Notes: generated by a model not told the origin, from the sequence alone. DNA of 64,000 nucleotides from an uncultured Planctomycetales bacterium (GCA_964478715.1 CAYZIY010000005.1:19832-83831); one strand, 5' to 3'; shown: positions 10,799-58,578, counted from the first letter of the stretch. Made by a program: numbers and translations.

Positions 10799-10805
10799 GG
10801 GGGTT

Positions 10806-11927: not shown

Positions 11928-11937
11928 CCGAAGGTGA

Positions 11938-13391: not shown

Positions 13392-13428
13392 AAAATAGTT
13401 TAAGGACGCAAGGTTTAGAAGACGACTG

Positions 13429-13467
13429 AAACCGCAAGGTTAAAGCAGATCGGCCTTGCGGTTTTTG
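13429..13467 (+). promoter_or_regulatory. stem-loop in cspA 5' leader (possible attenuator/thermosensor element)
   Basis: AAACCGCAAGG...CCTTGCGGTTT is an 11-bp perfect stem with a 14-nt loop, followed by TTTTTG. It lies between the candidate promoter and the GTG start. Confidence 0.4.
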
Positions 13468-13496
13468 TATAACCACTCAATCAAGGAGGACAAAAA

Positions 13497-13697
13497 GTGG
13501 TTAAAGGTACAGTAAAATGGTTTAGCAACCAAAAAGGCTATGGTTTTATCGCCGCCGAAACAGGAAAAGATGTTTTTGTGCATCATTCTGAAATTCAGGG
13601 CGATGGCTATAAGACCTTAGACGAAGGGCAGTCCGTTGAGTTTGAGATTACGGATGGTCCTAAAGGGGAGCAGGCCAAAAACGTCGTAAAAATGTAA
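13497..13697 (+). CDS. cspA: cold-shock protein (CspA family, S1-like OB fold)
   Basis: [34 protein letters not shown] carries the RNP1/RNP2 motifs. GTG start with SD AAGGAGG. Confidence 0.95.
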
Positions 13698-13713
13698 TTT
13701 GGTTTTTACGTGA

Positions 13714-13757
13714 GGGGCATTTTTTGAGAAATCAAAAAATGCCCCGATTGTTTTCTG
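13714..13757 (+). terminator. rho-independent terminator 1 downstream of cspA
   Basis: GGGGCATTTTTT...AAAAAATGCCCC 12-bp stem followed by a T-rich tail. Confidence 0.6.
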
Positions 13758-13792
13758 GGGGCCAATGCTTTTGCATTGGCCCCCTTGTTTAT
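13757..13792 (+). terminator. rho-independent terminator 2 (tandem)
   Basis: GGGGGCCAATGC-TTTT-GCATTGGCCCCC perfect 12-bp stem followed by TTGTTTAT. Confidence 0.6.
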
Positions 13793-32719: not shown

Positions 32720-32793
32720 CGGGGCGTAGCGCAGCTTGGCTAGCGCGTCTGCTTTGGGAGCAGAAGGTCCTGGGTTCAAATCCCAGCGCCCCG
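32720..32793 (+). tRNA. tRNA-Pro (anticodon TGG)
   Basis: 74 nt. 7-bp acceptor CGGGGCG/CGCCCCG. D-arm GCGC...GCGC. Anticodon stem TCTGC/GCAGA with loop TTTGGGA (TGG, G37). T-arm CTGGG-TTCAAAT-CCCAG. Discriminator A. No encoded CCA; followed by T7. Confidence 0.9.
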
Positions 32794-32846
32794 ATTTTTT
32801 TGTTATTTTGACGCTGCTTTATTTCCCTAATATTTCTTTTCGAATT

Positions 32847-40331: not shown

Positions 40332-40819
40332 AAACCCTTATTGTTTACTATTCCTTTGAAGGAAATACGGAATTTATTGCCAAAGCCATGGCTGAGGCCA
40401 TCGGCGCCGACCTTCTCAAATTACAACCCAAAAAAGAAATTCCAACCAAAGGCTTCATGAAATATTTTTGGGGTGGGCGTCAGGCCATGATGAAGATGAA
40501 GCCGGAGCTTCTCCCGCTTGAGAAAAATCCTGCTGATTATGATTTTATTATTTTAGGGACACCCGTTTGGGCTTTTACTTATTCTCCGCCTTTGGCGACA
40601 TATTTTTCGCAGAGGCCTTTTAAAAATAAGCGTATAGCCTTATTTTGTTGTCACGGAGGAGGAAAGGCCGGGACTTTGAGAAATATGAAAGAGGCTCTCA
40701 AGGGAAATACTTTTGTGGGTGAAATCGATTTTATAGAGCCGCTAAGAGGCAAAACACAGAAGAAGAAAGAAATGGCGGTTGACTGGGTGAATCATTTATC
40801 GAGAGAGATGACCGCATGA
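40328..40819 (+). CDS. flavodoxin-family protein
   Basis: MKTLIVYYSFEGNTEFIAKAMAEAIGADL...DFIILGTPVWAF. Confidence 0.7.
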   Translation: MKTLIVYYSFEGNTEFIAKAMAEAIGADLLKLQPKKEIPTKGFMKYFWGGRQAMMKMKPELLPLEKNPADYDFIILGTPVWAFTYSPPLATYFSQRPFKNKRIALFCCHGGGKAGTLRNMKEALKGNTFVGEIDFIEPLRGKTQKKKEMAVDWVNHLSREMTA

Positions 40820-42303
40820 ATCAAAAGAAAAAGAAAAATGTGGCGGTTGTTGGCGCCGGAGTTGGAGGCCTGGCAACGGTTGCTCGCCTTGCCTCGCGAG
40901 GCTATCAGGTAGATGTCTATGAAAAACTGCCCGAATGCGGTGGGCGGGCCCATATGATCGAGGATCAGGGGTTTAAATTTGACACCGGCCCGTCATTTGT
41001 TTTAATGCCGGATTTCTTTAGAGAAGTTTTTACCTATTGCTATGAGAATATTGAAGATTATCTGACACTTAAGAAATTGGATTGTCATTACAAAATATTT
41101 TATCCCGACCGAGAAACATTATCGGTTTACAGCGATACGGAAAGGACAAAGCAGGAGATAGAACAGATTGAGCCGGGAGGGAGTCAGGCTTTTGAAGGCT
41201 TTCTTAAAGAATCAAAGCGGTACTACAGAGTTGTTGAGCCGCTATTATATCGCTATTTAAAGCCGAGCGATATTGTTTCACCGGATATTTTAAGCCTCAT
41301 TATTAAACTCAAAGTTTGGCAATCTTATTGGCAGCTGGCCAAAAAATATTTCAAAAATGAGCGCATCTGCTATGCCTTGACTTTTGAAGCGATGTTTATC
41401 GGTGTGTCTCCTTTTAAGACACCGAGTTTTTACAGCATCATCACTTATGCGGATCATATTCAGAAAATCTTTCACCCTATGGGGGGAATGTATGAAATTC
41501 CTCTGGCTTTAGAGAAATTGGGTAAGAAATTTGGAGCACGCTATCATTACGGAAAGGAAATTAAGAAGATCACAACTCATAACGGCTCTGTGAAGCTTCA
41601 CCCACAGGAGGGTAATGATATCCCTACGGATCGTGTTGTGATTAATGCAGATTACTCTTATTCCCAGGAAACTCTGCTTAAGAGAAAGCTGCCAAATTTC
41701 ACTTATTCCTGCTCGGTTTTTCTGTTATATCTGGGGCTAAAAACCAAGGTGCAAGGAATTGAGCATCATAATCTTTTTTTCTCGTCTGATTTGCGAAAGA
41801 ATTTGGAGCAAATTTTCGATACGAAAATTTCACCGGAAGATCCATCTTTTTATGTTCATGTCCCGACGGTGACCGATCCAGGTTTAGCGCCTGAAGGGAA
41901 AGATTTGTTTTATATTCTGATTCCGGTCGCCAATCTTCAGAATCAAAAAGAGATTTTTGATAAGTATCGGGATCAGTTGAGATCCTTGATCTTTTTCAAG
42001 ATCAGAGAACAGACCGGGATTAACCTGGAAGATTTAATCGAAGTGGAACATCATTTTATTCCGCAGGATTTTATTGGTCGATATAATATTCAATATGGAG
42101 CCACCTTTGGCTTGGCCCACTCGTTTGCTCAAAGCGCTTTCTTTCGACCCGGCAATCAAGATCGTCGATATTCTAATATCTACTATGCCGGAGCCAGTTC
42201 GCAGCCCGGCGGTGGTATTCCGCCAGTGATAGCGAGTTCACGCATTGTTGCCGATTTAATTTCTAAAGAAGACCGACCTATTTTAGTTTCCGAAGGTACT
42301 TAA
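40816..42303 (+). CDS. phytoene desaturase-family FAD-dependent oxidoreductase (CrtI/CrtN/HpnE-like)
   Basis: VAVVGAGVGGLATVARLASRGYQVDVYEKLPECGGRA. C-terminal YYAGASSQPGGGIPPVIASSRIVADLI. Confidence 0.8.
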   Translation: MNQKKKKNVAVVGAGVGGLATVARLASRGYQVDVYEKLPECGGRAHMIEDQGFKFDTGPSFVLMPDFFREVFTYCYENIEDYLTLKKLDCHYKIFYPDRETLSVYSDTERTKQEIEQIEPGGSQAFEGFLKESKRYYRVVEPLLYRYLKPSDIVSPDILSLIIKLKVWQSYWQLAKKYFKNERICYALTFEAMFIGVSPFKTPSFYSIITYADHIQKIFHPMGGMYEIPLALEKLGKKFGARYHYGKEIKKITTHNGSVKLHPQEGNDIPTDRVVINADYSYSQETLLKRKLPNFTYSCSVFLLYLGLKTKVQGIEHHNLFFSSDLRKNLEQIFDTKISPEDPSFYVHVPTVTDPGLAPEGKDLFYILIPVANLQNQKEIFDKYRDQLRSLIFFKIREQTGINLEDLIEVEHHFIPQDFIGRYNIQYGATFGLAHSFAQSAFFRPGNQDRRYSNIYYAGASSQPGGGIPPVIASSRIVADLISKEDRPILVSEGT

Positions 42304-43117
42304 CGATATTTTGTGTTGTCTCATCGGGCGTAGAAGCTCCTGCCGTTACACCGATGGTATCCAATTTTTTAAACCATTGTCGATCGATATCTTTCACTGA
42401 TTGGATCCAGTAGCTTCTGGCATTCAACACTTTTGAAATTTGGTAGAGTCTTTTTGTATTGGCGCTATGTTTAGAGCCGATAATGATCATCACATCATTC
42501 TCAAGAGGCAAAGTTTTGATTTCGGCCTGTTTGGTTTGTGTTGGCCGGCAGACGGTGTTAAAAAACTTTAAGTTTTTAATCAGAATCCGCAGTTTGGCGA
42601 CTATTTGGCTGACTTTTTCGATATTTTGAGTGGATTGCACAACAACGGCCGCTTTTTTCAGGCGTCTAACTTTTTGCACGGGGATATCTTCTGGCCGGTC
42701 AATAACGATAGCTTTTGTCTTTAATTGGCCCAGAATCCCAAGAACCTCGTCATGTTTATGATCTCCGATGATGATAATCCGGTAACCCCGATGCTCTTGT
42801 TCTCGGACGATTTTATGGATTTCCTTGACCATGGGGCATGTGGCATCAACCAGAGAATAGCCAAGGACTTTCGCTTGGCGGTAAATCTTTTTTGGAGCTC
42901 CATGAGCACGGATCAAAAGGGTTTTACCTGTTCCTTTTTTCAATGATTTGATATTTTTAATACCAGCGGCCTTGATTTGCTTAACCACATCTTCATTATG
43001 GACAATATGACCAAGCATCTCCACATTTTGCCTGGATTGAATTGTCTTTAAAGCCAGGTTGATGGCCCGGGTCACTCCGAAACAGAAACCGGCGGATTTC
43101 GCCAGACGAATTTTCAT
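42278..43117 (-). CDS. ispH: 4-hydroxy-3-methylbut-2-enyl diphosphate reductase
   Basis: MKIRLAKSAGFCFGVTRAINLA, with conserved Cys in ATCPMV and the NTVCRP region. Confidence 0.85.
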   Translation of the reverse strand: MKIRLAKSAGFCFGVTRAINLALKTIQSRQNVEMLGHIVHNEDVVKQIKAAGIKNIKSLKKGTGKTLLIRAHGAPKKIYRQAKVLGYSLVDATCPMVKEIHKIVREQEHRGYRIIIIGDHKHDEVLGILGQLKTKAIVIDRPEDIPVQKVRRLKKAAVVVQSTQNIEKVSQIVAKLRILIKNLKFFNTVCRPTQTKQAEIKTLPLENDVMIIIGSKHSANTKRLYQISKVLNARSYWIQSVKDIDRQWFKKLDTIGVTAGASTPDETTQNIVKYLRKLK

Positions 43118-43998
43118 CGGTATTCTCCTTTACGAAAGACATTAAAGGTCAAAAAAAGCTTTTCACAGAAGCTGGTATGAGCCCTTTGTGAAAAGATGTC
43201 GTATTTATTTCTTTCTATGGCTGATAGGATTCCGGCATAAATATCTTTCATCAGACAGACCACAAAACGGCAGCGGGAGTTGCTGATAAAAGGGGTTCCT
43301 TTAAGAGCACTGGCATAATAGAGTCGGGCCCGTTCGATCTGGAATTTCATAAAATCTTCCCAAGCTTTGGTCACTTCGCCGTTTCTAATAATATTCTTAT
43401 CTATGTGGAATTCCTGAAGATCATCCCGGGGAAGATAAAGTCGTTTCATGTCCCAGTCTTCCTTAATATCTCTTAAAATATTGGTTAGCTGCATGGCGAT
43501 TCCCAAGTCAATAGCCGCCTCTTTTGCTCGGGGATCAGCCGAGCCGAAAATCTTCAGCATAATCAGACCCACCACACCGGCCACATGGTAACAATATTTA
43601 TATAAATCATGAAAATCCGCAAAAGAGGTGTTCTCTAAATCCATTTTCATTCCCAGAAGAAGATCATCAAAGTAGCGATAAGGGATTTTGTAATCACGGA
43701 CTGTTTTTCGAAAAGCCGCACACAAAGGTTGGGTTAAAGGTTTTTTTTCATAAGCGTCTCTGATACGGGTTTCTATTTCTTTTAGCTTTTTTTGAGCGGA
43801 TAGATGTGTTTGCTGATTATCGACGGAAGAATCAGAGATTCGGCAAACGGCATAAACGGCATAAGAGGCCCTTTTTCTTTGAGGATCAAGCCAGTGGGAA
43901 GCAAAATAAAAGCTTTTGGCGTGTTGTTTGGTGATGTGGACAGCTTGTTGATAGCCTTTTTGAATAAGTCTTTCAGGATTTTCGGCCATGGGGCTCAT
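43114..43998 (-). CDS. squalene/phytoene synthase family (CrtB/HpnD-like)
   Basis: YAVCRISDSSVD-like first Asp-rich region, YCYHVAGVVGLIML and ILRDIKEDWD (second DxxxD-type motif). Confidence 0.8.
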   Translation of the reverse strand: MSPMAENPERLIQKGYQQAVHITKQHAKSFYFASHWLDPQRKRASYAVYAVCRISDSSVDNQQTHLSAQKKLKEIETRIRDAYEKKPLTQPLCAAFRKTVRDYKIPYRYFDDLLLGMKMDLENTSFADFHDLYKYCYHVAGVVGLIMLKIFGSADPRAKEAAIDLGIAMQLTNILRDIKEDWDMKRLYLPRDDLQEFHIDKNIIRNGEVTKAWEDFMKFQIERARLYYASALKGTPFISNSRCRFVVCLMKDIYAGILSAIERNKYDIFSQRAHTSFCEKLFLTFNVFRKGEYR

Positions 43999-44084
43999 TG
44001 TATCTCACAACAGAGACAAACGCAATTTTTTTCAAAATGATGCTTTTTCTGTTAAAATACTCTACCAATCGAGGGGGTAATGAG

Positions 44085-44783
44085 ATGTTTACCTATTTGC
44101 TTATCAATCTGGCTACCGTGTTCATTCCCTTAGCACTTTCTTTTGAAAGCCGGATTCGGTATTTCAAGAAATGGAAATATGTGGCGGCATCAACAGCCAT
44201 TGTCGGATTTTTCTTTATTGTCTGGGACAGTTTTTTTACCCAATGGGGCGTTTGGGGATTTTCTCCTGCCTATTTGATCGGCATCACTTTTTTCCATCTG
44301 CCTTTAGAAGAGATCCTTTTTTTCTTTTGCGTTCCGTTTTCCTGTATTTTTATCTATGAGCTTGTCTGCCATTTTGATCGCGACGTTATCTTAAAATCTC
44401 TGGCACGTCCGTTAACTATAGGATTGGCAGTCGTTCTATTGATCTTGGGTTTTGTTTTTCTCCATAAAGTTTATACCTCGATCACTTTTCTTTTGCTCGC
44501 TTGGTTGCTTGTCATTCATTTTTTTCTCTTAAAGAAGGAGTATATAGCTCATTTTTATTTAGCCTATGCTATCAGCGTTATTCCTTTTTTACTTGTTAAC
44601 GGAGTTCTCACAAACGGTATAGGTTTTATTAGCAAGAATCCGGTTGTCTGGTATAACAACGCGCAGAATTTGGGACTGCGCTTGATGGGAATTCCTCTCG
44701 AAGATTTTTTCTATTCCTTGCTTCTTCTTTTAAGCAATATTACGATTTACGAATATTTTAAGGGAAGGGAATACAAAGCATGA
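44085..44783 (+). CDS. lycopene cyclase domain protein (two tandem CrtYcd-type domains)
   Basis: MFTYLLINLATVFIPLALSFESR start after the SD GAGGGGG. ~7 TM helices with a PLEE motif. Length fits a fused heterodimeric-type cyclase. The ORF-track start at 43998 is rejected. Confidence 0.6.
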   Translation: MFTYLLINLATVFIPLALSFESRIRYFKKWKYVAASTAIVGFFFIVWDSFFTQWGVWGFSPAYLIGITFFHLPLEEILFFFCVPFSCIFIYELVCHFDRDVILKSLARPLTIGLAVVLLILGFVFLHKVYTSITFLLLAWLLVIHFFLLKKEYIAHFYLAYAISVIPFLLVNGVLTNGIGFISKNPVVWYNNAQNLGLRLMGIPLEDFFYSLLLLLSNITIYEYFKGREYKA

Positions 44784-46809: not shown

Positions 46810-47379
46810 ATGCTTTATTGGTTGGCAAAACTTACTTCTTTTTGTTTTTTTAAGCTATTTTTTAATATTGAGCTAAAAGGGCAAGGAAAAATACCATCCA
46901 AAGGCCCGTTCATTTTAGCGGCCAATCATCTCAGTTATTTTGATCCCCCTCTTGTGGCAACATTTATCAGATGCAGGATATGTTTTCTGGCGAAAGAAGA
47001 ACTTTTTCGCAACTGGATTGGCCGGATATGTTTTTCACAACTCGGAGCGATTCCCTTAAAACGTCAGACGAATGATTTTAGGGCCATGCGTTTGGCTTTG
47101 GCATTATTGAACAAAAAGCCGCTTTTAATCTTTCCCCAGGGAGTGATCAAAGCCGCTTGGGATGATTTTCATGCGGGGGTCGGATTCTTAGCCCGACAAT
47201 CCTCGGTGCCCGTTATGGCGGCCCGCATTTATGGGGCACAACATATTCTTCCCCTTAGAGAGTGTTTCAGGCAAAAAAAGAAGATCAAAATTGTTTTTGA
47301 TTGGGTTGATAATATTCAGCCCGAAGATAACAATCAGATTATAGCCAACAAGGTCATGGAAAAAATCAAAAGCCTTTGA
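46810..47379 (+). CDS. plsC: 1-acyl-sn-glycerol-3-phosphate (lysophospholipid) acyltransferase
   Basis: HX4D motif AANHLSYFDPP and LLIFPQG. Its stop overlaps the start of the downstream megaprotein. Confidence 0.75.
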   Translation: MLYWLAKLTSFCFFKLFFNIELKGQGKIPSKGPFILAANHLSYFDPPLVATFIRCRICFLAKEELFRNWIGRICFSQLGAIPLKRQTNDFRAMRLALALLNKKPLLIFPQGVIKAAWDDFHAGVGFLARQSSVPVMAARIYGAQHILPLRECFRQKKKIKIVFDWVDNIQPEDNNQIIANKVMEKIKSL

Positions 47380-50300
47380 TGAAAATAACATTTGTTTATC
47401 CCCGTTTTGAGAAATTTCTCAGCAATAATCCTGAATTCGACCAGGGTGTGGTCGATTATTTTCTGGGGAATTTTACGACGCCGCCGTCTTTAGGCATTCC
47501 GATTATGGCATCCTGGACCCCGCCTGATATAGAAACCGAATTAGTGGATGACAATAGCGGAGACACCCTTGATTACAGCGCACCAACAGATTTGGTGGCT
47601 ATCAATTGTTTTACGCCTCAAGCCACGCGTGCTCTGGAGATTGCCGATGGCTATCGGGCTCATGGGAAAAAAGTAATTATGGGTGGATTTTTCCCTTCGT
47701 TTATGGTCGACGAATGTTTTCAATATGCGGATGCGGTTTGCGTCGGAGAGGTCGAACCAATTTGGGAATCTGTGATTGAAGATATGCGTTGTGGAGAGCT
47801 GAAGAAGAAATATGTTGGCGGATGCCGTTTCGATCTTTCCAAAATGCGTATCCCTAAGCGCGATATTTTTTATAATAAACATAATTATGACTGGGATGAA
47901 GACCTTGTCCAGATTACGCGCGGCTGTTCGTATAGCTGTGCGATGTGCGCGATCCCTGCTCATATGGGGCCGCGGATTCGCCTGCGTCCCATCGATCATG
48001 TTATCCAAGAGATCAAAACACTGAAATATGACAATGTATATCTGGCCGACGATGTGTTGTTTTTCCCGCAGAGAAGAATATATGATTATGTCACCCAACT
48101 CTTAGAAGCCCTTATCCCTTTAAATAAAAAATATTTTGTCAGCTCGACGATGGCGTTAAGAACTGATCCCAAGTTCCTGGATTTGGTCGCTAAAGCGGGC
48201 GTGCGCAATTTCTACTGCACCATGAACGTTGATCCCGTATCGATTAAGGCTATTCAAGGAGGAAAAAAGGAACAACAGATGCTCTGTGATCTGGTCAAAA
48301 ATATTGAAGAGCGCGGCATTCGTTTTTTTGGGTCTTTTGCGATCGGCCGCGATTGGGATGACACAAGCATTGCTGATCGTATTATTGATTTAAGCAACAA
48401 AGCTAATATCCGCACATCCGAATTCTTTTTGTTTACGCCGTATCCGGGTACCGTTCATTGGGAAAGGCTTGAGCGTCAGGGAAGAATTTTTGATCGCAAT
48501 TGGAGCCACTATAACGGTGCTCATGTAGTGGCCCATCATCCAACGCTTAGCGATGAACAGCTCTATGGTCAATTCGTGAAAATTTGGAAAGAGTTCTTTA
48601 AGAAAAATAAAGATCAGCATGCCGTGCATATGGCTCCCATTGAATATGAGGGAGGCAAAGTTGTCGCCGGTAAGCAGCTTCGAAAAAAGGGCATTAGAGG
48701 CCAAGCGGTGATCACCGGAGTCGGTTTTCTCAGTCCGATTGGCAGTGACAAAGAAACACTTCTGGATTCTTTGAAAAATGGTCGCCACGGCATTGCGCCA
48801 ATAACCAAATTTAACGCATCTCATTTTTCCACTAATCTTGGTGCGGAGATTAAAAATTTTGATCCCCAAGAATATTTGAGTGATTCTGAGCGTCGAGAAT
48901 ACGATGATGCCTATATCCAGTACGGAATTGTCGCTGCCCGTAAAGCCCTTCAGGACGCCGGTTTTCCGTTAGGAGAAGCCCCAAACAATCGCGACACAGC
49001 GATGGTTCTGGGAACTTGCAATGGCGGTCTCTTATCCGGAGAAAAAGAATACAGATGGATCCACGGCCAATCGGATGTTCCCTTTGATGAAAAGATGAAT
49101 TTGCTGGTTAAGTATTACGGATTCGGAAAGGCTATGGCGCATGCCCTAGGTATTGGCGGAGAATTATGGATGGTCACAACGGCGTGTTCTTCGACCACAG
49201 CAGCGATAGGGTTGGCTCACATGCTGATCCGCCGAGGATATTATAAAAAGGTTCTGGTCGGCGGATCGGATAGCTTAAGTTTGGCCAGCATGTCAGGATT
49301 TCATGGCCTGAAAGCACTCTCTTGTGGTCAGACTGCTCCGTTTTCTTTACCGGTTGGTTTAAACATCGGAGAAGCCGCTTGTTTTTGGGTTGTGGAAGAG
49401 ATGGAACATGCTTTGCTGCGGCATGCGCGTTGCTATGCAAAAATTGCCGGCCATGCCACTACCTCTGATGCCTATCATCCAACGGCTCCCGATCCTAGAG
49501 GGGATGGTGTATTTCGTACATTGTCCCGCGCTCTTAATCATGCCGGGATTGACTTAAACCATATCGGCTATATCAATGCGCACGGGACTGGAACGGAAGC
49601 CAATGACAGAGCGGAAAGCAAAGGAATTACTAAGTTTATAAACAATCACTCTATTCCTGCTGTTTCGCTGAAGTCATATTTTGCCCATTGCATGGGGGCA
49701 ACCGGCATTCTGGAGGCGACCTGCAGCCTTCTGGCTATGGAAGAAAACTTCATTCCGCCGACGATTAATTTTACACAAGGACGTCCGGGATGCACGCTTG
49801 ATTATGTTCCAAATAATTTTCGAAACAAAGAACACAAAGCCTTTATATCCGCCAATTATGCCTTTGGGGGTAATAATGCGGCGGCAGTTATAACCCAATG
49901 GAATTTTCCGACACCTCCTGTTACAAACAGCACCCAGCGGGTTGTGATTACCGGTGTGGGGGCCATTTCTTCTCTTGGCACGACCATGGAAGAAAATCTA
50001 ACAGCGTTACGCGAGGGTAAGCGTGGAATTGGCTCTATCAAACGATTGAACCTGAAGAATATGAAGTCCGAACTCGCCGGTTTGGTTCCAGAGTTCAACT
50101 CCCAAGACATCGATCGGCGTCTTGATTTTTCTCATATGAATCCGATCAGCAAATTTGCCACAGCAGCGGCCAAGCGGGCGCTTGATAATTCAGGTATCCG
50201 TGTGAGCAGAAGCAATGCCGATAAAATCGGTATTGCCATGGGCGTTTGCAGTGGGCCTTCAGAAGAGAGTCACATGAATAAACTGTTTACCAGCGGAAAA

Positions 50301-51155
50301 TATGAAGCAGATATCAGCTGTTTTTCTAACATCACGGCTAACTCTACGGCCGGCTGGGTGTCCAATGCTTTGTATTTAAAAGGCGTAAATATTTCTTTGG
50401 CGCCGGGTCATCATGCCGGTCTGCAGGCCTTGGCCTATGCTTTTGATGCGTTGGCAGAAGGTCAGGCCGATCAAATGGTGGTTGGTGCTGCTGAAGAGGT
50501 TTATCCTAATAATTATTGGAAATATGATCTGATCAATTATTTGTATACGGGCGAGCAGGAACATGACTACCGCCTGAGGTTAGACAATGCCAAACAAAAA
50601 GTGATCGGAGAAGGCGCTGGCATGATGGTTATGGAGCCGCTTCATATGGCCCAAAGCCGAGGGGCTCCCATCCTCGGAGAGGTGCTCGGCTATGGAATGT
50701 CTATGGATGGGGGGTCATTTCTTAAACAGAATCTGGATACGCACGGCTTACGCCATGCGTGTGAATTGGCAATACAAAGATCGAATAGTAAAGAGGACGA
50801 TATTGATCTGGTCGTCTGGGCTCCGCAAGGAAACGTTCAGGATAAGAAGGTGATGGATGTTTGCAAAGATATTTTCAAAGAGTGTTATGAACATGTGCCT
50901 TTGGTGACAACCACATTTCATACCGGATATATCGAAAGTGTTTCGATTATCCTTACGCTGGCGTGTGTTCTTTCGGCTATAAAGGAGGATTCTGATCTCT
51001 GGCCGCAAATAACCGGTATTAAGGAGATCGATCAAAAACCATTGAATAAAAAACCTCAGAATATTCTGGTTTTAGGCAGCAGTGATGTAGGATATAACTT
51101 TGCTGTTGTGATTAAACCCGATCCGTTCGATAAACTCCCATCGATTTCTGCATAA
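47376..51155 (+). CDS. tri-domain protein: B12-binding radical SAM domain + beta-ketoacyl synthase (KS) + KS-like chain-length-factor domain
   Basis: By manual count: aa 1-~430 is a B12-binding-like Rossmann region plus a radical SAM core, with C184x3C188x2C191 (GCSYSCAMC at nt 47925-47948). aa ~443-845 (nt ~48702-49910) is a KS with Cys604 (TTACSST), His736 (NAHGTGT) and His771 (FAHCMGATG). aa ~856-1259 (nt ~49941-51152) is a KS-like domain with GVCSGPS but lacking the HGTGT histidine, i.e. CLF-like. Confidence 0.75.
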   Translation: MMKITFVYPRFEKFLSNNPEFDQGVVDYFLGNFTTPPSLGIPIMASWTPPDIETELVDDNSGDTLDYSAPTDLVAINCFTPQATRALEIADGYRAHGKKVIMGGFFPSFMVDECFQYADAVCVGEVEPIWESVIEDMRCGELKKKYVGGCRFDLSKMRIPKRDIFYNKHNYDWDEDLVQITRGCSYSCAMCAIPAHMGPRIRLRPIDHVIQEIKTLKYDNVYLADDVLFFPQRRIYDYVTQLLEALIPLNKKYFVSSTMALRTDPKFLDLVAKAGVRNFYCTMNVDPVSIKAIQGGKKEQQMLCDLVKNIEERGIRFFGSFAIGRDWDDTSIADRIIDLSNKANIRTSEFFLFTPYPGTVHWERLERQGRIFDRNWSHYNGAHVVAHHPTLSDEQLYGQFVKIWKEFFKKNKDQHAVHMAPIEYEGGKVVAGKQLRKKGIRGQAVITGVGFLSPIGSDKETLLDSLKNGRHGIAPITKFNASHFSTNLGAEIKNFDPQEYLSDSERREYDDAYIQYGIVAARKALQDAGFPLGEAPNNRDTAMVLGTCNGGLLSGEKEYRWIHGQSDVPFDEKMNLLVKYYGFGKAMAHALGIGGELWMVTTACSSTTAAIGLAHMLIRRGYYKKVLVGGSDSLSLASMSGFHGLKALSCGQTAPFSLPVGLNIGEAACFWVVEEMEHALLRHARCYAKIAGHATTSDAYHPTAPDPRGDGVFRTLSRALNHAGIDLNHIGYINAHGTGTEANDRAESKGITKFINNHSIPAVSLKSYFAHCMGATGILEATCSLLAMEENFIPPTINFTQGRPGCTLDYVPNNFRNKEHKAFISANYAFGGNNAAAVITQWNFPTPPVTNSTQRVVITGVGAISSLGTTMEENLTALREGKRGIGSIKRLNLKNMKSELAGLVPEFNSQDIDRRLDFSHMNPISKFATAAAKRALDNSGIRVSRSNADKIGIAMGVCSGPSEESHMNKLFTSGKYEADISCFSNITANSTAGWVSNALYLKGVNISLAPGHHAGLQALAYAFDALAEGQADQMVVGAAEEVYPNNYWKYDLINYLYTGEQEHDYRLRLDNAKQKVIGEGAGMMVMEPLHMAQSRGAPILGEVLGYGMSMDGGSFLKQNLDTHGLRHACELAIQRSNSKEDDIDLVVWAPQGNVQDKKVMDVCKDIFKECYEHVPLVTTTFHTGYIESVSIILTLACVLSAIKEDSDLWPQITGIKEIDQKPLNKKPQNILVLGSSDVGYNFAVVIKPDPFDKLPSISA

Positions 51156-51245: not shown

Positions 51246-51569
51246 TTGACGGTTATGGACAGCGCGATGCAAAATGCTATAGAAAAACGGGCCCGCGTGA
51301 TCAATGCGATGAAAGAAGAGCTGATCAAGCGACTCAATTTGCCCTACACTCCAGAAGACATGCACGAAGATATTTCGCTTTTTGGGGCAGGACTTGGCCT
51401 TGATTCGCTGGATGCGCTTGAGGTCGTTTTATGCGTTGAGCATTGTTTTGGTATTAAAATTCCCGACCATAATGTGGCGATTTTACGTTCAATTAATACC
51501 CTGGCCGATTATGTCATAGAACAAAAAGAAAAGACGGAGATAGCCCATGAGAACGCTCCCGCTTCGTGA
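51246..51569 (+). CDS. acyl carrier protein
   Basis: GLGLDSLDALEVVLCVEHCFGIKIPD (phosphopantetheine Ser in DSL). ~80-100 aa. Confidence 0.8.
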   Translation: MTVMDSAMQNAIEKRARVINAMKEELIKRLNLPYTPEDMHEDISLFGAGLGLDSLDALEVVLCVEHCFGIKIPDHNVAILRSINTLADYVIEQKEKTEIAHENAPAS

Positions 51570-52653
51570 TCTTTTGGCCGCTCAAGGGGCCTCTTTTAAA
51601 GAACGTTATGGGATCGAAGTTCCAACTGTCATTAGTGATCCCAAAAAGGAATATCATTTGATCCGCGATACGGTAGGCATTACGGATTTTTCTTTTATGC
51701 AGAAATACCGCATCTCCGGAGATACGGGCGTTGACCTGCTCGATCAATTGTTTGCAGGCAATGTGGCCAAAATCCGTTTTTGTCGAGTTTTACATACATT
51801 TCTTGCAAATAAACAAGGACAGCTAGTTGTTGATGCCTACATCGCCAATAATGATGAAGAGTTTATTGTCTTATGTGAAAGCATTATCGATGATGCCGCT
51901 TGCAAGGATCTTTGCAGGCTTAATGGTGATTCTGGCGGTCTCGAGGATTTAACCGACAGTCACGTAGTTTTCAGCATTGACGGGTATGATGCCTGGAAGG
52001 TTGTCAAAGATCTTTTTGGCGCCGACGTGCTTGGCTTGCCGTATCTTTCCGTAGAAACATACCCATTTGAAGATAGCTCTGTTTTCTTATTTCGCGCCGG
52101 AAAGACTTCTGAATTTGGCTATCTGGCCATGGCCCCCAAAGCAATCGGTCCACAATTAATGAACGCTTTGACTACCGCAGCCAAGCAGCATGGCGGCGGG
52201 CTTTGCGGAAGCAATATCCATCACGACCTACGCCTAGAAGGCCGTTTTTTTAATATTTATGCTGAAGGAAAAAGAGTCAGAGATCCGCTACCCCTTGGCT
52301 TGCAATGGATGATTGATTTTGACAAGGAATCTTTTCTGGGTCATCAAGTGATTCGCGAAAAACGCAAACAAGGTTTGAAGAATAAAATCATCGGTGTAAA
52401 GATCGCCGCTTCCAGCGGGGCTCTTAAGGTCGCAGATCCCGTTTTTGACCAAGAACAACAAGTAGCTTCCGTTGAAGCAGCATGCTTTTCCTATGTCCTT
52501 AATGCCCATGTCGGTTTGGCCTTGTTTCCTTTTTCTATGGCTTATGCCGGTTTAGCATTCCATCTCGGAAAGCCCGGTGGCCCCCGTCTTGATACCATTT
52601 CTATGCCTCCGATTATGCCCAAAAGTTTAAGCGTTAAGCTTGATGAAATGTAA
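51547..52653 (+). CDS. GcvT-family (aminomethyltransferase/YgfZ-like) folate-binding protein
   Basis: The collinear pattern TLPLRDLLAAQGASF...DFSFMQKYRISG...GYLAMAP...GLCGSNIHHDLRLEGRFF...PLPLGLQWMIDFDKESFLGHQVI...KIIGVKI matches the GcvT fold. Overlaps the ACP stop by 23 nt. Confidence 0.6.
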   Translation: MRTLPLRDLLAAQGASFKERYGIEVPTVISDPKKEYHLIRDTVGITDFSFMQKYRISGDTGVDLLDQLFAGNVAKIRFCRVLHTFLANKQGQLVVDAYIANNDEEFIVLCESIIDDAACKDLCRLNGDSGGLEDLTDSHVVFSIDGYDAWKVVKDLFGADVLGLPYLSVETYPFEDSSVFLFRAGKTSEFGYLAMAPKAIGPQLMNALTTAAKQHGGGLCGSNIHHDLRLEGRFFNIYAEGKRVRDPLPLGLQWMIDFDKESFLGHQVIREKRKQGLKNKIIGVKIAASSGALKVADPVFDQEQQVASVEAACFSYVLNAHVGLALFPFSMAYAGLAFHLGKPGGPRLDTISMPPIMPKSLSVKLDEM

Positions 52654-53123
52654 TGAGTGTTCAGGATCTAAACAGTTCAGAAGGCCGATTAATCAAACGC
52701 AAAATGAGAATCACGCCAAAACTGTATGAACTTGATATGCAGGGGGTGGTGTATAATGGTCACTATTTTAAATGGTTTGATCAAGCGCGCTTTGAAATCA
52801 TTTTGGAAATGATCTCTATTGATGAGATTCTTCAAACTGGTCTAACATTTATGATTTCGGAAAATCATTGTGAATATAAAAATTATGTGAGCTACGGTGA
52901 ACCTTTAGTGCTGCATACGTCGCATCGTATTCAGCCTGTGTATCAGGGCCGGTTGACTTTTCAACATTCGATTATGCATGAAAAAAAGAAGACCGAAATT
53001 GCCAGCGGCTATTCCAATCTGATTGTTGTGAATCAGAAAACAAAACAGCTGATTAAGGAAATGCCTGATTTTATCTGGCAAAGATATATCCATCTGCAAT
53101 CCAGCGGTGAACATGTCATTTGA
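52653..53123 (+). CDS. hotdog-fold acyl-CoA/ACP thioesterase (YbgC/4HBT-like)
   Basis: MQGVVYNGHYFKWFDQARFEIILEM matches the 4HBT pattern. ~150 aa. Confidence 0.6.
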   Translation: MSVQDLNSSEGRLIKRKMRITPKLYELDMQGVVYNGHYFKWFDQARFEIILEMISIDEILQTGLTFMISENHCEYKNYVSYGEPLVLHTSHRIQPVYQGRLTFQHSIMHEKKKTEIASGYSNLIVVNQKTKQLIKEMPDFIWQRYIHLQSSGEHVI

Positions 53124-53850
53124 TCATAAAGTTGTTGTTGTAACCGGCGGATCCAGAGGGATCGGTAAGGCTATCGTCGAGGCCTTCTGCGCACATAAGG
53201 CAAAGGTTTATTTCACATATCACAAAGATGAACAAGCGGCACAGGATCTAACAAATTCTTGCAAAGCTGTTGCCATCAAGTGCTCCCAAACGGATCTTGA
53301 GAGCATTGAAAAGACCGTAGAGTCCATCATTAAAGAGAATCAGTCGATCGATATTTTGATTAATAATGCCGGTATTACGTCAGATCAATTTCTGATGATG
53401 ATGACCTTTGATCAATGGGAAAAGGTCATTAATACCAATCTGCACGGGGCTTATCGTTGGGCCAAGATTGTGGGCCGGTCGATGTTGGCTGAGAGAAAAG
53501 GGGTTATGATCAATATCGCCAGTGTAGCCGGTTTGGTAGGCATTGCAGGGCAATCCAATTACGCAGCCAGCAAAGGAGGACTATTGGCCTTTACACGATC
53601 TATGGCTGCTGAGTTTGGACCCAGGGGTATTCGCGTGAATGCCGTTGTTCCCGGTTTTATCGAAACAGATATGACAGCCAAAATGTTCCGTCAGATTAAG
53701 CGACAAAACATCGAGAAAATTCTCCTGAAACGTTTCGGCAAACCCGAAGAAGTGGCCCAGGCGGTTCTGTTCTTATCCTCAGAAGGGGCCTCGTATATCA
53801 TTGGCCAATCTATCATTGTCGACGGTGGATTATCGGCCGTAGCAATCTAA
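53107..53850 (+). CDS. fabG: 3-oxoacyl-[ACP] reductase (SDR)
   Basis: VVVVTGGSRGIGKAI, NNAGIT, and the catalytic YAASKGG. Confidence 0.85.
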   Translation: MNMSFDHKVVVVTGGSRGIGKAIVEAFCAHKAKVYFTYHKDEQAAQDLTNSCKAVAIKCSQTDLESIEKTVESIIKENQSIDILINNAGITSDQFLMMMTFDQWEKVINTNLHGAYRWAKIVGRSMLAERKGVMINIASVAGLVGIAGQSNYAASKGGLLAFTRSMAAEFGPRGIRVNAVVPGFIETDMTAKMFRQIKRQNIEKILLKRFGKPEEVAQAVLFLSSEGASYIIGQSIIVDGGLSAVAI

Positions 53851-53852
53851 TT

Positions 53853-54806
53853 ATGAACAAAATAGTTTTTTTATTTCCCGGACAGGGATCCCAAGAGGTT
53901 GGTATGGGGCGGGATCTGTTTAAACAGGATGATGATTTCCGTGCGCTTATCAATGAAGCCAGCCAGCAAGCCGGGGAAGACCTTGAGCTTATCTGCTTAA
54001 GAGGACCGGCAAAAAAATTAGTGAGGCCGTCTTTGCTCCAGCCTTTACTTGTGGCGGTTAGCCTCGGGTATTTACGTCATGTCATAAGGAAAAATATTAT
54101 TCCTGATTTTGTGCTGGGGCATTCTTTGGGTGAAATCACGGCATTAGTTGCGGCCGGTATCATTGATGACCGCTTGGCTATTTCCATAGCCACCAAACGT
54201 GGCCAGTTGATGGATGAGGCAGCTACCGTCTGTGAAGGCGGCATGATGGCGATATTAGCAGTCGCCCCTGATAAAATTCAAGGCATCATAGATGACCTTG
54301 GTCTTGACAATCAAATAGTGATTGCGAATTATAATACGCTGGATCAGACGGTGCTGAGCGGTAAGCGATCTGCTTTTGATCAGTTGGTTGCGGAAATTCA
54401 TAAAGCCGGAGGAAAATGTAAGAAACTCAATGTCGCCGGGCCATGGCACAGCCCCTACATGCAAAACGCGTACGAACAGTTTCGCATATGGGTTGAGCCT
54501 TTGACATTCCAGTCACCCCAAATGCCCGTTATTCTTGATGGCACAGGCCAAGCAGAATCAGACCCCATTGTTATCAAACAGGCCATCACATCGAGCCTTA
54601 TTAATCCTGTTCAGTTTAGAAAATGCATGGAATATTGTCATGCGCAGTCCGTTAAGACCTTCCTTGAGATTGGACCGGGGCGGGTTTTGTCCGGACTGGT
54701 ACGCGCCAATGGATTTGAGGACACAACCCGCATCTACAAGGTCAATAATTACCGCGGTGTAGAATTGGTGGCCTCTGAATTATCTTCACAACCGCAATCC
54801 GCTTAG
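53853..54806 (+). CDS. fabD: malonyl-CoA:ACP transacylase
   Basis: FLFPGQGSQEVGMG and GHSLGEITALVAAG (active-site Ser). Confidence 0.85.
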   Translation: MNKIVFLFPGQGSQEVGMGRDLFKQDDDFRALINEASQQAGEDLELICLRGPAKKLVRPSLLQPLLVAVSLGYLRHVIRKNIIPDFVLGHSLGEITALVAAGIIDDRLAISIATKRGQLMDEAATVCEGGMMAILAVAPDKIQGIIDDLGLDNQIVIANYNTLDQTVLSGKRSAFDQLVAEIHKAGGKCKKLNVAGPWHSPYMQNAYEQFRIWVEPLTFQSPQMPVILDGTGQAESDPIVIKQAITSSLINPVQFRKCMEYCHAQSVKTFLEIGPGRVLSGLVRANGFEDTTRIYKVNNYRGVELVASELSSQPQSA

Positions 54807-54808: not shown

Positions 54809-55894
54809 TTAATCACAAGGTAGAGGGAAGTATTTATCGAGTCGGGAGAAAAGCATTTTGTCTCCTTGAATAACGAGCTTCTGATCCTTAAGCGCATTGC
54901 GCGCGTCGAGCTCTCGTAGGAAAATCTGTGACCACACATCACTCGTGGTGGTTATGCGCAGATGATAATCCTCCGATAGGCATTCTTTGACCGTACATTT
55001 TCCTTTATTGATTGTAATCGTAAAATGGATATTTCTATCAGTAAAATCAAATTGAACAGATGCTTTGATACGGGCTGTGGCTTGGGAATCAATGTGCCGG
55101 ACCATTTCGCTGATCAGAATGTAAGGATTTTTAAGAACATGGTTGTTGACGGAATTTGGATCCATAGCCTGCTTGCCTAGCGCTTGTGCTTCCTGCCAAT
55201 AAATGTTGGAATCCTCTAGAAAATGGGAAACATTTTCAGAAAGAGGCACACTGACATTGTTTATTATTGATTGTGAGATCTTACCCTGTGTCGCAAGCTC
55301 GGTGCCCGCGGTTCTAAAAGAAGACATTACAGTTCGAATCGTCTTGGGCTTTAAATAGGTAAATGGCAGCAGATAGGATTCACCGCGGATCAAGCCGCCA
55401 GCTAAAGGTAGGTTTAATCCTTCGGAAAAGAGTTCAAGCGTTTTACGGGCTCCTTCAAACGTATCTAAACCACGGAATGCCCCCACCAGGATATAGGCCA
55501 TTTTTTGTGGCCATTTTTTAGGATTGCGGATGGCGTTACGAATCTTATCTTGACCAGCGGGCAGATGCACATTTTTCATATAGGGCAATAAACGATCAAA
55601 GAATACTTTCAATGTGCCGCTGATACTGTAGATATATAAGGGTGTGGAGAAAACAACAATGTCGGCTTGTGTGAATGTTCCCATAGCAGAGGTCATATCA
55701 TCCTTATAAACGCATTGCCCGGGAGTTATCAGCCAACAATGATAACAACCCTTACAGGGATTGATTCTTTTGGTCGTTAAATCAATCTCTTGAACGTTGG
55801 CATTGCCTTGTTTCAGGCCTTCGATAAACAGATCGGTTAGCTGTTGGGTGTGGCCGTTTTTTCTGGGATTAGCGCGGATGATCAGGGCGTTCAT
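54809..55894 (-). CDS. flavodoxin-like NAD(P)H-dependent FMN reductase fused to SCP2-like lipid-binding domain
   Basis: N-terminal MNALIIRANPRKNGHTQQLTD...CKGCYHCW...VVFSTPLYIYSISGTLKVFFDR (iron-sulfur flavoprotein-like). C-terminal ~100 aa with SCP2-like NALKDQKLVIQGDKMLF. Confidence 0.55.
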   Translation of the reverse strand: MNALIIRANPRKNGHTQQLTDLFIEGLKQGNANVQEIDLTTKRINPCKGCYHCWLITPGQCVYKDDMTSAMGTFTQADIVVFSTPLYIYSISGTLKVFFDRLLPYMKNVHLPAGQDKIRNAIRNPKKWPQKMAYILVGAFRGLDTFEGARKTLELFSEGLNLPLAGGLIRGESYLLPFTYLKPKTIRTVMSSFRTAGTELATQGKISQSIINNVSVPLSENVSHFLEDSNIYWQEAQALGKQAMDPNSVNNHVLKNPYILISEMVRHIDSQATARIKASVQFDFTDRNIHFTITINKGKCTVKECLSEDYHLRITTTSDVWSQIFLRELDARNALKDQKLVIQGDKMLFSRLDKYFPLPCD

Positions 55895-56361
55895 AGCGTT
55901 CCTTCTACAGCTGCAAGAGTCAGGATACCTTTAGCAACGATTTTACGGCCAACGGTGGCTTCAACAGTGTAACTATAAAGCTGTTCAAATTGTTCACGAG
56001 TTTCCGAAATCAATTCAAGTGTTTCTCCCGGAAAAGCAGGGGAGGTGAATTTGACATTAGATGAGGCCAAGTAGAATATCTTGGGGGGTTCTTGCTGATT
56101 GCTGGGGATGGCTTTTTTACTGAAGCCTAAGAGCAACCCACTTGTTTGGGCTAAGGCATCCAGCACTAAGGCTCCGGGCATAATCGCTTTTTGCGGAAAA
56201 TGACCCTTAAACCATGGCTCATCTTCACGGATGAATCTTTCAGCAATGATAAGGTGATCCGGTTTGAATTTAATGACTCGATCAACAAAAAGAAAAGGAG
56301 GGCGATGGGGGATAATATCGAGGATCTCTTCTAATCTGAATAATGTATTTTTTTTCATCAT
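55891..56361 (-). CDS. fabZ: 3-hydroxyacyl-[ACP] dehydratase
   Basis: IIPHRPPFLFVDRVIKFKP...EPWFKGHFPQKAIMPGALVLDALAQ (catalytic His/Glu context). Confidence 0.85.
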   Translation of the reverse strand: MMKKNTLFRLEEILDIIPHRPPFLFVDRVIKFKPDHLIIAERFIREDEPWFKGHFPQKAIMPGALVLDALAQTSGLLLGFSKKAIPSNQQEPPKIFYLASSNVKFTSPAFPGETLELISETREQFEQLYSYTVEATVGRKIVAKGILTLAAVEGTL

Positions 56362-56415: not shown

Positions 56416-57243
56416 TTAATGGGAGCCAGCAGCATTCTTAACTGGATCAGAAGAAAAGGATGAAGTAAAATTCTCGACGGTAGTCAAGATATGGGCTGAT
56501 CCCCGACCAGACTCCAGTCCTTCATATTTCAACCAGACACGAGGCTTATCTTTACTATACCACAACAAAGTCGGCGGCACAAATTGGTCAACAATGGCAT
56601 TGAGAAAACCCATATCGGTATTTATTTTGATTTGCACAGTTTCTATTTTTTGTGATTCAACCATGATAGAGTCTTCTTTAAGTAATTCGGCTTTTAACTT
56701 ATAGAGACCTGGTTCGCTGCTGACAAAATGAAAACGTATCGTTTCTCCAGCTATCAAATCATCAAGAAAAGGTTTTAAAAAATAAATAAGGGTGGCATAA
56801 TCTGTTGTGCGCTCCTTTAGAGGCAAAGATTGTTGTTCGATTATGTTCATATTCTCGTCCAAGCGTCTGATATGGATAATCTTATCTTGATAATCGTAAT
56901 CATTTTTAAGAGTGGAGATAATCCGATTTTCTCTATTTCTAATTGTAAAGAGAGTATAAAGTGGACAAAGAAGATCTTCTCTGCTTTCTGTTTGGGATTC
57001 AAGCTTCCAGCTTATATCGTTGAATGATCCGTAATTTCCCAGACCAGCTTCCTTAAGGACAAAGCGATCATTACTTAGATGCTTAAAATTTCCATCAAGG
57101 CGAGAGCGCATGACCTTGGTCTTTTTGTCGATTGATATTTGTTGATACGTTTCGACTTCAGGCCAAAGGAATTGGCCTAAGCATGGGCTGCAGCAGGAAA
57201 GGATTCCTAAGACAATGGCTGATTGGCGAATAAGCCTTTTCAT
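56416..57243 (-). CDS. secreted hypothetical protein (paralog A of 62274-63107)
   Basis: Signal peptide. Shares the blocks YDYQDKII and L/IDDVLDQFVKPT..WY..........WLKYEG with the paralog. Confidence 0.5.
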   Translation of the reverse strand: MKRLIRQSAIVLGILSCCSPCLGQFLWPEVETYQQISIDKKTKVMRSRLDGNFKHLSNDRFVLKEAGLGNYGSFNDISWKLESQTESREDLLCPLYTLFTIRNRENRIISTLKNDYDYQDKIIHIRRLDENMNIIEQQSLPLKERTTDYATLIYFLKPFLDDLIAGETIRFHFVSSEPGLYKLKAELLKEDSIMVESQKIETVQIKINTDMGFLNAIVDQFVPPTLLWYSKDKPRVWLKYEGLESGRGSAHILTTVENFTSSFSSDPVKNAAGSH

Positions 57244-57835: not shown

Positions 57836-58570
57836 TTATGCCAATTGACCTTGATAAAGAGTGGCAATGCCACCTGTTAAAGATTGTGCCCGAATATTTG
57901 TAAGTCCATAGTGATCCATGATCGCTAAAATCCTTTTTGGCGGCGGAAATTCACAAATGGTTCTGGCTAGATAATCAAAGGCCCTGCGGTCTTTCAAGAA
58001 GAGACGGCTAACCGCAGGCATAATCTTTATCAGATAGAACAAATAGATCTTTTTAAGAATTTTATTGTTTGGAAGAGAAAATTCAAGGATTTTCATTTGC
58101 CCGCCTCTTTTCAAAACACGAACCATTTCACAAACAGCTTTCTCAATGGAGTGTTCATTCCTTAAACCGAAGGTATTAACTACCACATCGAATGATTGAT
58201 CTTGAAACGGCATCGAGAGTCCGTTGGCCCGAAATATCTTAATTCGATCAGAGAGACCATGAGATTTAATCCGGCGATAAGATTTTTGAAGCATACCATC
58301 AGAGATATCCACGGCGACCAGTCGGCTTTGCGGATGCTCTTTAGCAAAGGCGATGGTGGTTTCGGATGTGCCCGCGCAAACGTCACAAACCAGGGGAGCG
58401 TTTGGCATAGTATAAGATTGAACCAGAAATCTGATCCAGTTCCGATGAATGGAGGCTGAAAAAAGTGAGTTTAAAAAATCATAACGAAAGGCAATCGAAT
58501 CAAAAAGTTTTTCCGTTTTATTGTGATTCACTGTCATTGTATTATCTTTTGTATTTCTTAAGATGGACAT
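57836..58570 (-). CDS. class I SAM-dependent methyltransferase (UbiE/MenG family)
   Basis: FDSIAFRYDFLNSLFSASIHRNWI (UbiE N-terminal motif) and the SAM-binding VCDVCAGTSETT. Confidence 0.7.
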   Translation of the reverse strand: MSILRNTKDNTMTVNHNKTEKLFDSIAFRYDFLNSLFSASIHRNWIRFLVQSYTMPNAPLVCDVCAGTSETTIAFAKEHPQSRLVAVDISDGMLQKSYRRIKSHGLSDRIKIFRANGLSMPFQDQSFDVVVNTFGLRNEHSIEKAVCEMVRVLKRGGQMKILEFSLPNNKILKKIYLFYLIKIMPAVSRLFLKDRRAFDYLARTICEFPPPKRILAIMDHYGLTNIRAQSLTGGIATLYQGQLA

Positions 58571-58578
58571 GATCTAAT

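Follow-up and report, generated by a model that had tools for sequence, protein, structure and literature searches.

Radical S-adenosylmethionine (SAM) chemistry and acyl chain extension are brought together in a single polypeptide encoded by an uncultured Planctomycetales bacterium. The window analyzed here (the whole stretch of 64,000 nucleotides, GCA_964478715.1 CAYZIY010000005.1:19832-83831, with positions counted from its first letter) contains an open reading frame (ORF) in which a Rossmann-type domain and a radical SAM (rSAM) core are followed by a complete ketosynthase (KS) and by a catalytically dead KS-like domain that resembles a chain length factor (CLF). The favored reading, to which a probability of about 0.55 is given, is that this ORF encodes the core synthase of a dedicated, acyl carrier protein (ACP)-dependent pathway for a specialized lipid, of the type II fatty acid synthase (FAS) or highly reducing type II polyketide synthase (PKS) kind, and that the rSAM domain modifies the carrier-bound chain. 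A functional partnership of rSAM and KS-CLF on a carrier-bound acyl chain is itself well supported, since the two are fused or encoded by coupled split genes and are accompanied by their own ACP and FAS-type partners. This partnership was already proposed in an initial annotation of the sequence and stands on the conserved fusion and the coupled split genes. The further suggestion made there, that the radical chemistry accompanies chain building and may be methylation or C-C coupling, is a hypothesis, and the description of the CLF domain given there did not hold. The ORF and its parts are as follows, with amino acids (aa) numbered from the ATG.

47379..51155 (+): tri-domain ORF, consisting of a Rossmann/B12-like domain with a radical SAM core, a KS, and a CLF-like domain; 1258 aa
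47379..47828 (+): N-terminal Rossmann-type (B12-binding-like) domain, approximately aa 1-150
47886..48608 (+): radical SAM core, approximately aa 170-410, with the CX3CX2C motif at C183/C187/C190
48609..48701 (+): linker between rSAM and KS, about 30 residues, with low model confidence and low conservation
48702..49898 (+): active FabF-type ketosynthase (KS1), aa 442-840, with Cys603, His735, His770, and a Phe829 gate
49926..51152 (+): catalytically dead KS-like (CLF-like) domain, aa 850-1258, from the FabF alignment

The reading frame is unbroken on the + strand from an ATG at 47379 (1258 aa), or a TTG at 47376 (1259 aa), to 51155, and the ATG shares one base with the stop codon of the upstream PlsC-type acyltransferase gene. 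The 1258-aa numbering is used here, which places the SAM-cluster motif at C183/C187/C190 and the KS triad at C603/H735/H770; the residues named initially (Cys604, His736, His771, and CX3CX2C) are correct in the 1259-aa numbering. The same 1258-aa product is predicted on an independent Logan assembly. Furthermore, in a search of 5.8 billion proteins all 120 listed homologues have equal length and equal domain order, and nearly all of them are 1244-1330 aa long and share 58-80% identity with the window protein at 99-100% query coverage, with the same order of Pfam domains. These homologues were drawn from NCBI, JGI, ENA, and Logan, and those with names come from metagenome-assembled genomes (MAGs) of Omnitrophota, Chitinivibrionales/Chitinispirillaceae, and Fibrobacter; relatives from Omnitrophota reach 80-84% identity. 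When 116 full-length homologues from the four sources are aligned, both domain junctions are gap-free and the six residues C183, C187, C190, C603, H735, and H770 are all invariant.

The distribution of the fusion was also probed by a scan of GTDB, with one genome per species, which gave 93 loci; ORF analysis covered the 80 that were returned. The single-ORF form accounts for 61 complete loci and 9 contig-truncated loci in Omnitrophota, Fibrobacterota, Verrucomicrobiota (including Victivallales, Kiritimatiellia, and Lentisphaerae), and Rokubacteria. Both the single fused ORF claimed in the initial annotation and its tri-domain order are found again, in the 61 complete copies from other species and in every listed homologue, which is far more than chance would produce. 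Split forms occur as well. In Myxococcota/Polyangia, a stand-alone rSAM gene (~440 aa) is followed by a KS-CLF gene (~813 aa), and the point of division is the ~30-residue linker of the fused protein; at locus L084 the rSAM gene (10001-11329) overlaps the KS-CLF gene (11326-13767) by 4 bp. The same split is seen on a metagenome contig (L007), where the rSAM and KS-CLF proteins are 55% and 48% identical to the window protein, respectively. All parts are separate in one Pirellulaceae MAG (L085, 1171-9989), which encodes an MMPL transporter, a fatty acyl-AMP ligase (FAAL), and rSAM, ACP, KS, and KS-like proteins in turn; its rSAM is 55% identical, its KS has 407 aa, and the weaker KS-like gene encodes 423 aa. 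In all, rSAM and KS-CLF stay linked across five phyla or more, either within a single ORF or in genes whose translation is coupled. The plasmid collection has no record covering ≥80% of the query. The fusion is real, arose long ago, and is maintained by selection. Because rSAM and KS-CLF are mostly fused and are split only as tightly coupled genes, they probably act as one working complex.

KS1 (aa 442-841) is a complete FabF-type ketosynthase. It scores 457.7 bits on NF005589 (cutoff 387) and falls just short of the TIGR03150 equivalog (477.6 bits, cutoff 493.75), and its assignment to the FabF type is borne out by the invariant C603, H735, and H770 and by the F829 gate. A second ketoacyl-synt N-terminal match was found at aa 853-1089 in the Pfam/NCBIfam scan, and the domain to which it belongs aligns end to end (residues 4-397) with the actinorhodin KS/CLF (1TQY) and with FabF. 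Relative to E. coli FabF, C163 is replaced by H1011 (Pro in 70 of the 116 homologues), which is followed by an invariant H1012; H303 is replaced by an invariant W1147 that lies inside a W-A-P-Q-G-N motif, K335 by Thr, and H340 by Y1184. A G-x-H-A-G motif is conserved in this domain along with W-A-P-Q-G-N. The initial annotation had called this domain CLF-like on the grounds that it keeps a Cys and lacks the first catalytic His. The domain is indeed CLF-like, but because the whole triad is lost and not for the reason first given: there is no active-site Cys (H1011/Pro instead), and the position of the conserved Cys957 is unrelated to the active site. Nor is the Cys position occupied by the Gln of aromatic type II CLFs, being His here. 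As judged by alignment, the second domain is a full thiolase fold without the triad, and KS1 together with its covalently tethered dead partner would constitute a KS-CLF heterodimer in one chain. The tether and the anammox and PKS precedents suggest that the dead domain pairs with the KS and sets chain length.

Membership of the preceding region in the radical SAM superfamily is indicated by the CX3CX2C motif, by a match to PF04055 (Radical_SAM, aa 178-316) of 39.7 bits against a gathering score of 29.5, which bears out the initially annotated radical SAM core, and by a structural model that matches rSAM barrels. The three motif Cys residues are invariant also in 131 wider relatives. Conservation within the protein is highest in the rSAM segment, at 0.56-0.75 compared with 0.39-0.61 for the CLF part, when it is expressed as mean agreement with the family consensus of the 116 homologues per 50-aa segment. 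The AlphaFold2 (AF2) model of the Rossmann and rSAM part, built on a 131-sequence alignment, has a mean predicted local distance difference test score (pLDDT) of 92.7 and a predicted template modeling (TM) score of 0.90; with 6 sequences in the alignment, the pLDDT was only 65.5. In the former model, a five-stranded Rossmann domain (aa 1 to ~150; strands at 2-7, 52-57, 72-76, 99-102, and 119-123, with connecting helices) precedes the rSAM barrel, as it does in the class-B enzymes MgmA, TsrM, CysS, TokK, and OxsB. The closest fold is that of AprD4 (6FD2), which has the highest fold-comparison score (32.2) and also ranks first in Foldseek (TM 0.75), followed by MgmA/QCMT (27.4), CysS (9N1B; 25.7), TsrM (24.5), RimO/MiaB (about 23), TokK (7KDY; 17.9), and OxsB (15.3). 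By sequence, MgmA/QCMT, a B12-dependent methylase, is the best match in the PDB (E 4e-7).

Relatives of the rSAM domain were collected with HMMER from 1.84 billion cluster representatives, giving 890 at E ≤ 1e-30, most of which are stand-alone proteins of 420-470 aa with ~30-40% identity. None of the 71 stand-alone relatives tested reaches any NCBIfam family cutoff, and one at 42% identity lies in an unrelated context without a KS. The stand-alone relatives (≤42% identity) are uninformative on function, their contexts being unrelated and KS-less. The KS-associated rSAMs, fused and split, form a clade of their own with ~60 clade-specific invariant positions. Within 47379-48692, these include C77 and C280; M189 within CxxxCxMC, a position that is aromatic in generic relatives; and N283-V-D285 in the barrel, which replaces the G-x-E of generic relatives. 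Membership in TIGR04072, the ladderane-type B12/radical SAM family of lipid biosynthesis, was considered and rejected, as the window domain scores 41.4 bits against a cutoff of 360; the split rSAM relatives score 47-48 bits. A further fusion was observed among the relatives: a 931-aa protein (P0129; L091, 2828-5623) combines an rSAM domain of 38% identity with a CrtI/phytoene-desaturase-like FAD domain, and its gene adjoins those for an ACP, an LpxL-like acyltransferase, and a second CrtI-like protein. This is another fusion that ties such rSAMs to ACP-dependent lipid chemistry.

The genes around the fusion supply most of the activities of an ACP-dependent pathway:

46810..47379 (+): PlsC-type acyltransferase, 189 aa, conserved in Omnitrophota loci
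51246..51569 (+): dedicated ACP with a DSL phosphopantetheine site, in most complete loci
51547..52653 (+): GcvT-like protein (aminomethyltransferase/folate-binding fold), adjoining the ACP
52653..53123 (+): 4HBT/YbgC-type thioesterase (TE)
53107..53850 (+): FabG-type 3-oxoacyl-ACP reductase (KR)
53853..54806 (+): FabD-type malonyl-CoA:ACP transacylase (MCAT)
54809..55894 (-): fusion of an FMN reductase/flavodoxin-like domain with an SCP2 lipid-binding domain, 361 aa, kept in many loci
55891..56361 (-): FabZ/FabA-like (ApeI/ApeP-like) 3-hydroxyacyl-ACP dehydratase (DH)
56416..57243 (-): 275-aa protein without a family match, conserved in Ca. Aceula at 53% identity
57243..57818 (-): flavodoxin, conserved in Omnitrophota loci

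The ACP, GcvT-like, KR, and MCAT genes recur in most complete loci and in all phyla that have the fused form, while the TE, DH, and FMN_red-SCP2 genes recur in many loci. In Chitinivibrionales, a PF01553 acyltransferase occupies the position of the 275-aa protein of the window. The flavodoxin is a possible candidate for the electron donor to the radical SAM cluster, and the FMN_red-SCP2 protein might replace a missing enoyl reductase or supply electrons to the rSAM domain. The GcvT-like gene adjoins the ACP gene in most complete loci and also in an E. coli O157:H7 island that lacks an rSAM; because it is present in that island too, the GcvT-like protein belongs to the KS-CLF/ACP cassette. One may speculate that it carries out one-carbon chemistry on an intermediate bound to the swinging arm. 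In Fibrobacterota, many Verrucomicrobiota, and Myxococcota, the fusion or the split KS-CLF is immediately followed by a second gene, which encodes a KS-KS didomain of 760-870 aa (L001, 13753-16035; L002, 13759-16071; L084, 13764-16064); this gene is missing from the window and from the Omnitrophota loci. In the 64-kb window, the sole RNA family or tRNA detected is a tRNA-Pro (TGG) at 32720-32794 (+), and promoter and terminator scans of the window gave no excess over shuffled controls.

These activities can be arranged in the following scheme. First, the KS-CLF would start the chain by decarboxylation of malonyl-ACP and then lengthen it, with the dead subunit determining how long it grows. Next, the [4Fe-4S] cluster in its reduced state, for which the flavodoxin may supply the electrons, would cleave SAM, and the resulting 5'-deoxyadenosyl radical would remove a hydrogen from a chain carbon that is not activated; the chain could be held on the pantetheine arm of the ACP or on Cys603 of the KS. 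If the Rossmann domain holds methylcobalamin, the substrate radical may then be methylated by it, so that the chain becomes branched. Finally, the thioesterase and the PlsC-type acyltransferases would pass the product to a membrane lipid. Cobalamin-dependent C-methylation is the leading, though tentative, guess as to the radical step. It is ranked ahead of ring formation, coupling, or dehydration without cobalamin because most characterized class-B enzymes are methylases, because the methylase MgmA is the best sequence match in the PDB, and because the CysS and TokK structures contain pantetheine-bearing ligands.

A number of observations weigh against the favored reading or against the part of it that involves cobalamin. 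The PF02310 (B12-binding) match of the window protein, at aa 71-127, reaches 26.9 bits and stays below the gathering score of 32.1; a PF02310 match is precomputed for most homologues and is marked as weak wherever its context is shown. The nearest fold, AprD4, is without cobalamin despite its Rossmann-like domain according to a 2026 review (PMC12931638). F105 stands in place of the His of the GGxHPS motif, which 92% of the generic relatives have, and there is no cobalamin riboswitch within the window. Consequently, the initial label of a B12-binding domain is supported at the level of the modeled fold only, with the PF02310 score under its threshold; the domain keeps an invariant GG at 102-103. 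In addition, all NCBIfam matches of the window rSAM domain lie far under their cutoffs and point to no functionally defined family, the cluster encodes no classical enoyl reductase, all 80 returned loci are in MAGs, and the radical step could fall during elongation, on the starter unit, or on the finished chain.

The same assembly line could also operate with an rSAM domain that is free of cobalamin and does not methylate, and that instead forms a ring or another C-C bond, couples two chains, or dehydrates or desaturates the chain by a radical route. For ladderanes, the making of a ring or C-C bond within one molecule has been proposed, and for archaeal glycerol dialkyl glycerol tetraether (GDGT) ring synthases it has been shown. 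The sub-threshold PF02310 match, the AprD4-like fold, the loss of the motif His at position 105, and the change of G-x-E to N-V-D in the barrel all fit such chemistry, as does the fusion of a related rSAM to a CrtI-like desaturase. Furthermore, the presence of a KR and a DH and of no recognizable enoyl reductase makes an unsaturated chain plausible as the substrate of a radical cyclization, and the parts correspond to those of anammox cluster I, where cyclization is the favored idea (PMC13459092; bioRxiv 10.64898/2026.05.19.726425). However, the family function map shows characterized class-B enzymes to be mostly methyltransferases (PMC12931638), the best PDB match by sequence is a methylase, and the TIGR04072 score of 41 bits is far from the cutoff for ladderane-type enzymes. 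The likeness to AprD4 is one of overall fold only, at 16-18% identity. Chemistry without cobalamin is thus possible but less likely than methylation.

It is improbable that the rSAM domain works off the assembly line, by acting on the finished membrane lipid or by maturing the KS, CLF, or ACP, and that fusion serves only co-expression or co-localization. Precedents for action on finished lipids are HpnP/HpnR and the GDGT synthases (PMC13459092), and the Myxococcota loci contain only the rSAM, KS-CLF, and second KS-KS genes, with no ACP nearby. On the other hand, fusion in at least 61 species and splitting only into overlapping genes suggest a physical complex, and a dedicated ACP gene adjoins the fusion in most complete loci and lies between the rSAM and KS genes in the split Pirellulaceae locus. 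The PDB entries of CysS and TokK with pantetheine-bearing ligands argue in the same direction.

Carotenoid and isoprenoid genes flank the cluster in the window genome only (40816-44783 and 57836-59781). Upstream are crtI, ispH, crtB, and a lycopene cyclase gene, and downstream are genes for a UbiE-type methyltransferase and a geranylgeranyl-reductase-family protein; the genes for the cyclase, a TPR protein, a Pyr_redox_2 oxidoreductase, the acyltransferase, and the fusion form a series on one strand, in which neighbors overlap or are separated by short gaps. The cluster could accordingly be read as an accessory of the carotenoid pathway, in which the acyl chain would esterify a carotenoid and the rSAM domain would modify the isoprenoid instead of the acyl chain. 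The same-strand run into the fusion and the downstream genes favor this proposal, but it is very unlikely to be correct: carotenoid genes are absent at the Ca. Aceula, Chitinivibrionales, and Fibrobacter loci and within 14 kb at all 80 other loci, and the invariant partner of the rSAM is the KS-CLF and not an isoprenoid enzyme. The carotenoid genes are outside the conserved system. That the ORF is an artefact of frameshift, read-through, or chimeric assembly of separate rSAM, KS, and CLF genes, which was the error to be feared for the initial annotation, is refuted by the identical product on a second assembly, the gap-free junctions in homologues from several sources, and the 61 single-ORF loci in different species; separate genes do occur in Myxococcota and in the one Pirellulaceae MAG.

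A bolder proposal can also be made, although it is doubtful: a single natural polypeptide may carry out radical SAM chemistry in step with elongation, in each round or in a particular one, and its product may be a new class of membrane lipids that are carbocyclic, cross-linked, or branched at several points. If this is true, the hosts would be uncultured, probably anaerobic Omnitrophota, Fibrobacterota, Verrucomicrobiota, and Myxococcota, and the protein would offer a tractable single-polypeptide model for the ladderane-type problem of radical enzymes and KS/CLF pairs; the ladderane pathway is still unsolved. Occurrence in at least five phyla, with no cultured carriers among the genomes examined, points to an unrecognized lipid class in environmentally abundant anaerobes. 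A compact cluster of ~10 genes with three key activities in one polypeptide would also provide an experimental handle on the interplay of radical chemistry and carrier-protein assembly, and bacterial lipids with unfamiliar branches or rings also attract interest as biomarkers in sediments.

Among known systems, the closest likeness is to anammox cluster I (KustE3603-3608), which encodes a B12-type rSAM, amxACP, amxFabF2, amxFabFmut, a phytoene-dehydrogenase-like enzyme, and amxFabZ, and in which the FabF2/FabFmut heterodimer decarboxylates malonyl-ACP and has a single productive tunnel (bioRxiv 10.64898/2026.05.19.726425). Both systems comprise a Rossmann-plus-rSAM protein, a dedicated ACP, an active FabF-type KS, a KS paralogue without the triad, and a FabZ-type dehydratase, and the split Pirellulaceae locus L085 has the gene order of anammox cluster I (rSAM-ACP-KS-KS-like), its contig stopping before any desaturase or FabZ gene could appear. 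The differences are that three parts are joined in one polypeptide here; that the window domain is far below the cutoff of the ladderane-type model TIGR04072; that the triad positions of the dead KS are His/Pro, Trp, and Tyr here versus Val/Thr and Asn/Glu/Cys in anammox; and that the window cluster has GcvT-like, KR, MCAT, TE, and acyltransferase genes in addition and no conserved desaturase. The hosts of the fusion are not anammox bacteria, and when anammox orthologues were sought with the split Pirellulaceae rSAM as the query, the proteins retrieved were all of Myxococcota type or from other MAGs, with none named as anammox. The fusion may therefore be said to work like anammox cluster I without being a member of it, a likeness drawn from published descriptions. 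Clusters that antiSMASH labels as 'ladderane' have been reported in Omnitrophota, Fibrobacterota, Verrucomicrobiota, Myxococcota, and Planctomycetota with no mechanistic explanation (PMC9902471), and this overlap in phyla hints that they may be the loci described here.

The pairing of an active KS with an inactive homologue is shared with the KS-CLF of type II PKS systems (actinorhodin, ishigamide Iga11/Iga12, and aryl-polyene), and both KS halves match 1TQY A/B and 6KXD. As in aryl-polyene clusters, an ApeI/ApeP-like dehydratase, a KR, a 4HBT thioesterase, and acyltransferases are encoded nearby. In contrast to the type II PKS pairs, the subunits are fused, the Gln of aromatic CLFs is absent, and a radical SAM domain is attached. 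The KS-CLF didomains of polyunsaturated fatty acid synthases are a further comparator.

A match to the KS-CLF part is found in an island of E. coli O157:H7 EDL933 (NZ_CP124742; L005, 8739-23532), which encodes AcpS, a short-chain dehydrogenase/reductase, FabZ, ACP, a GcvT-like protein, and an 852-aa KS-CLF, and further another KS, ABC/LolA export proteins, and an MCAT. The 212-kb NZ_CP124742 is labeled as a plasmid, yet it bears ycdU and fimbrial genes. The 852-aa protein (WP_000856330) is collinear over its full length at 30% identity (E 2e-110), its CLF half included, and the GcvT-like protein (WP_000838077; L005, 10773-11933) is homologous to that of the window (E 4e-33). The cassette has the same accessory genes but an Enterobacterales host and no rSAM domain or gene. 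The rSAM module consequently seems to have joined a KS-CLF/GcvT/ACP cassette that existed before it, if the order of events is read in this direction. In the literature, nothing was found on the product of the O157 island or on GcvT-like proteins in KS/ACP clusters.

Parallels can also be drawn with individual rSAM enzymes. CysS (9N1B) and TokK (7KDY), whose PDB entries hold pantetheine-bearing ligands, are stand-alone proteins with 12-14% identity, extra C-terminal domains, and no link to a ketosynthase. AprD4 (6FD2) is a radical SAM 1,2-diol dehydratase with an aminoglycoside substrate and 16-18% identity. Jaw5 of jawsamycin biosynthesis is HemN-like (class C), and not of the Rossmann-plus-barrel kind. 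In the Jaw5/Jaw4 system, the rSAM is proposed to modify the polyketide stepwise during iterative elongation (PMC13459092). Unlike the fused rSAM described here, Jaw5 is a separate protein that acts beside an iterative PKS and catalyzes cyclopropanation (PMC13459092). No description of an rSAM-KS-CLF fusion was found in the literature, in keeping with the initial view that no enzyme of this architecture has been characterized, and the unfused set of parts is known from anammox cluster I. Lipid clusters that combine an rSAM with KS/CLF and ACP were therefore known already, and what is new is their covalent, widely distributed fusion.

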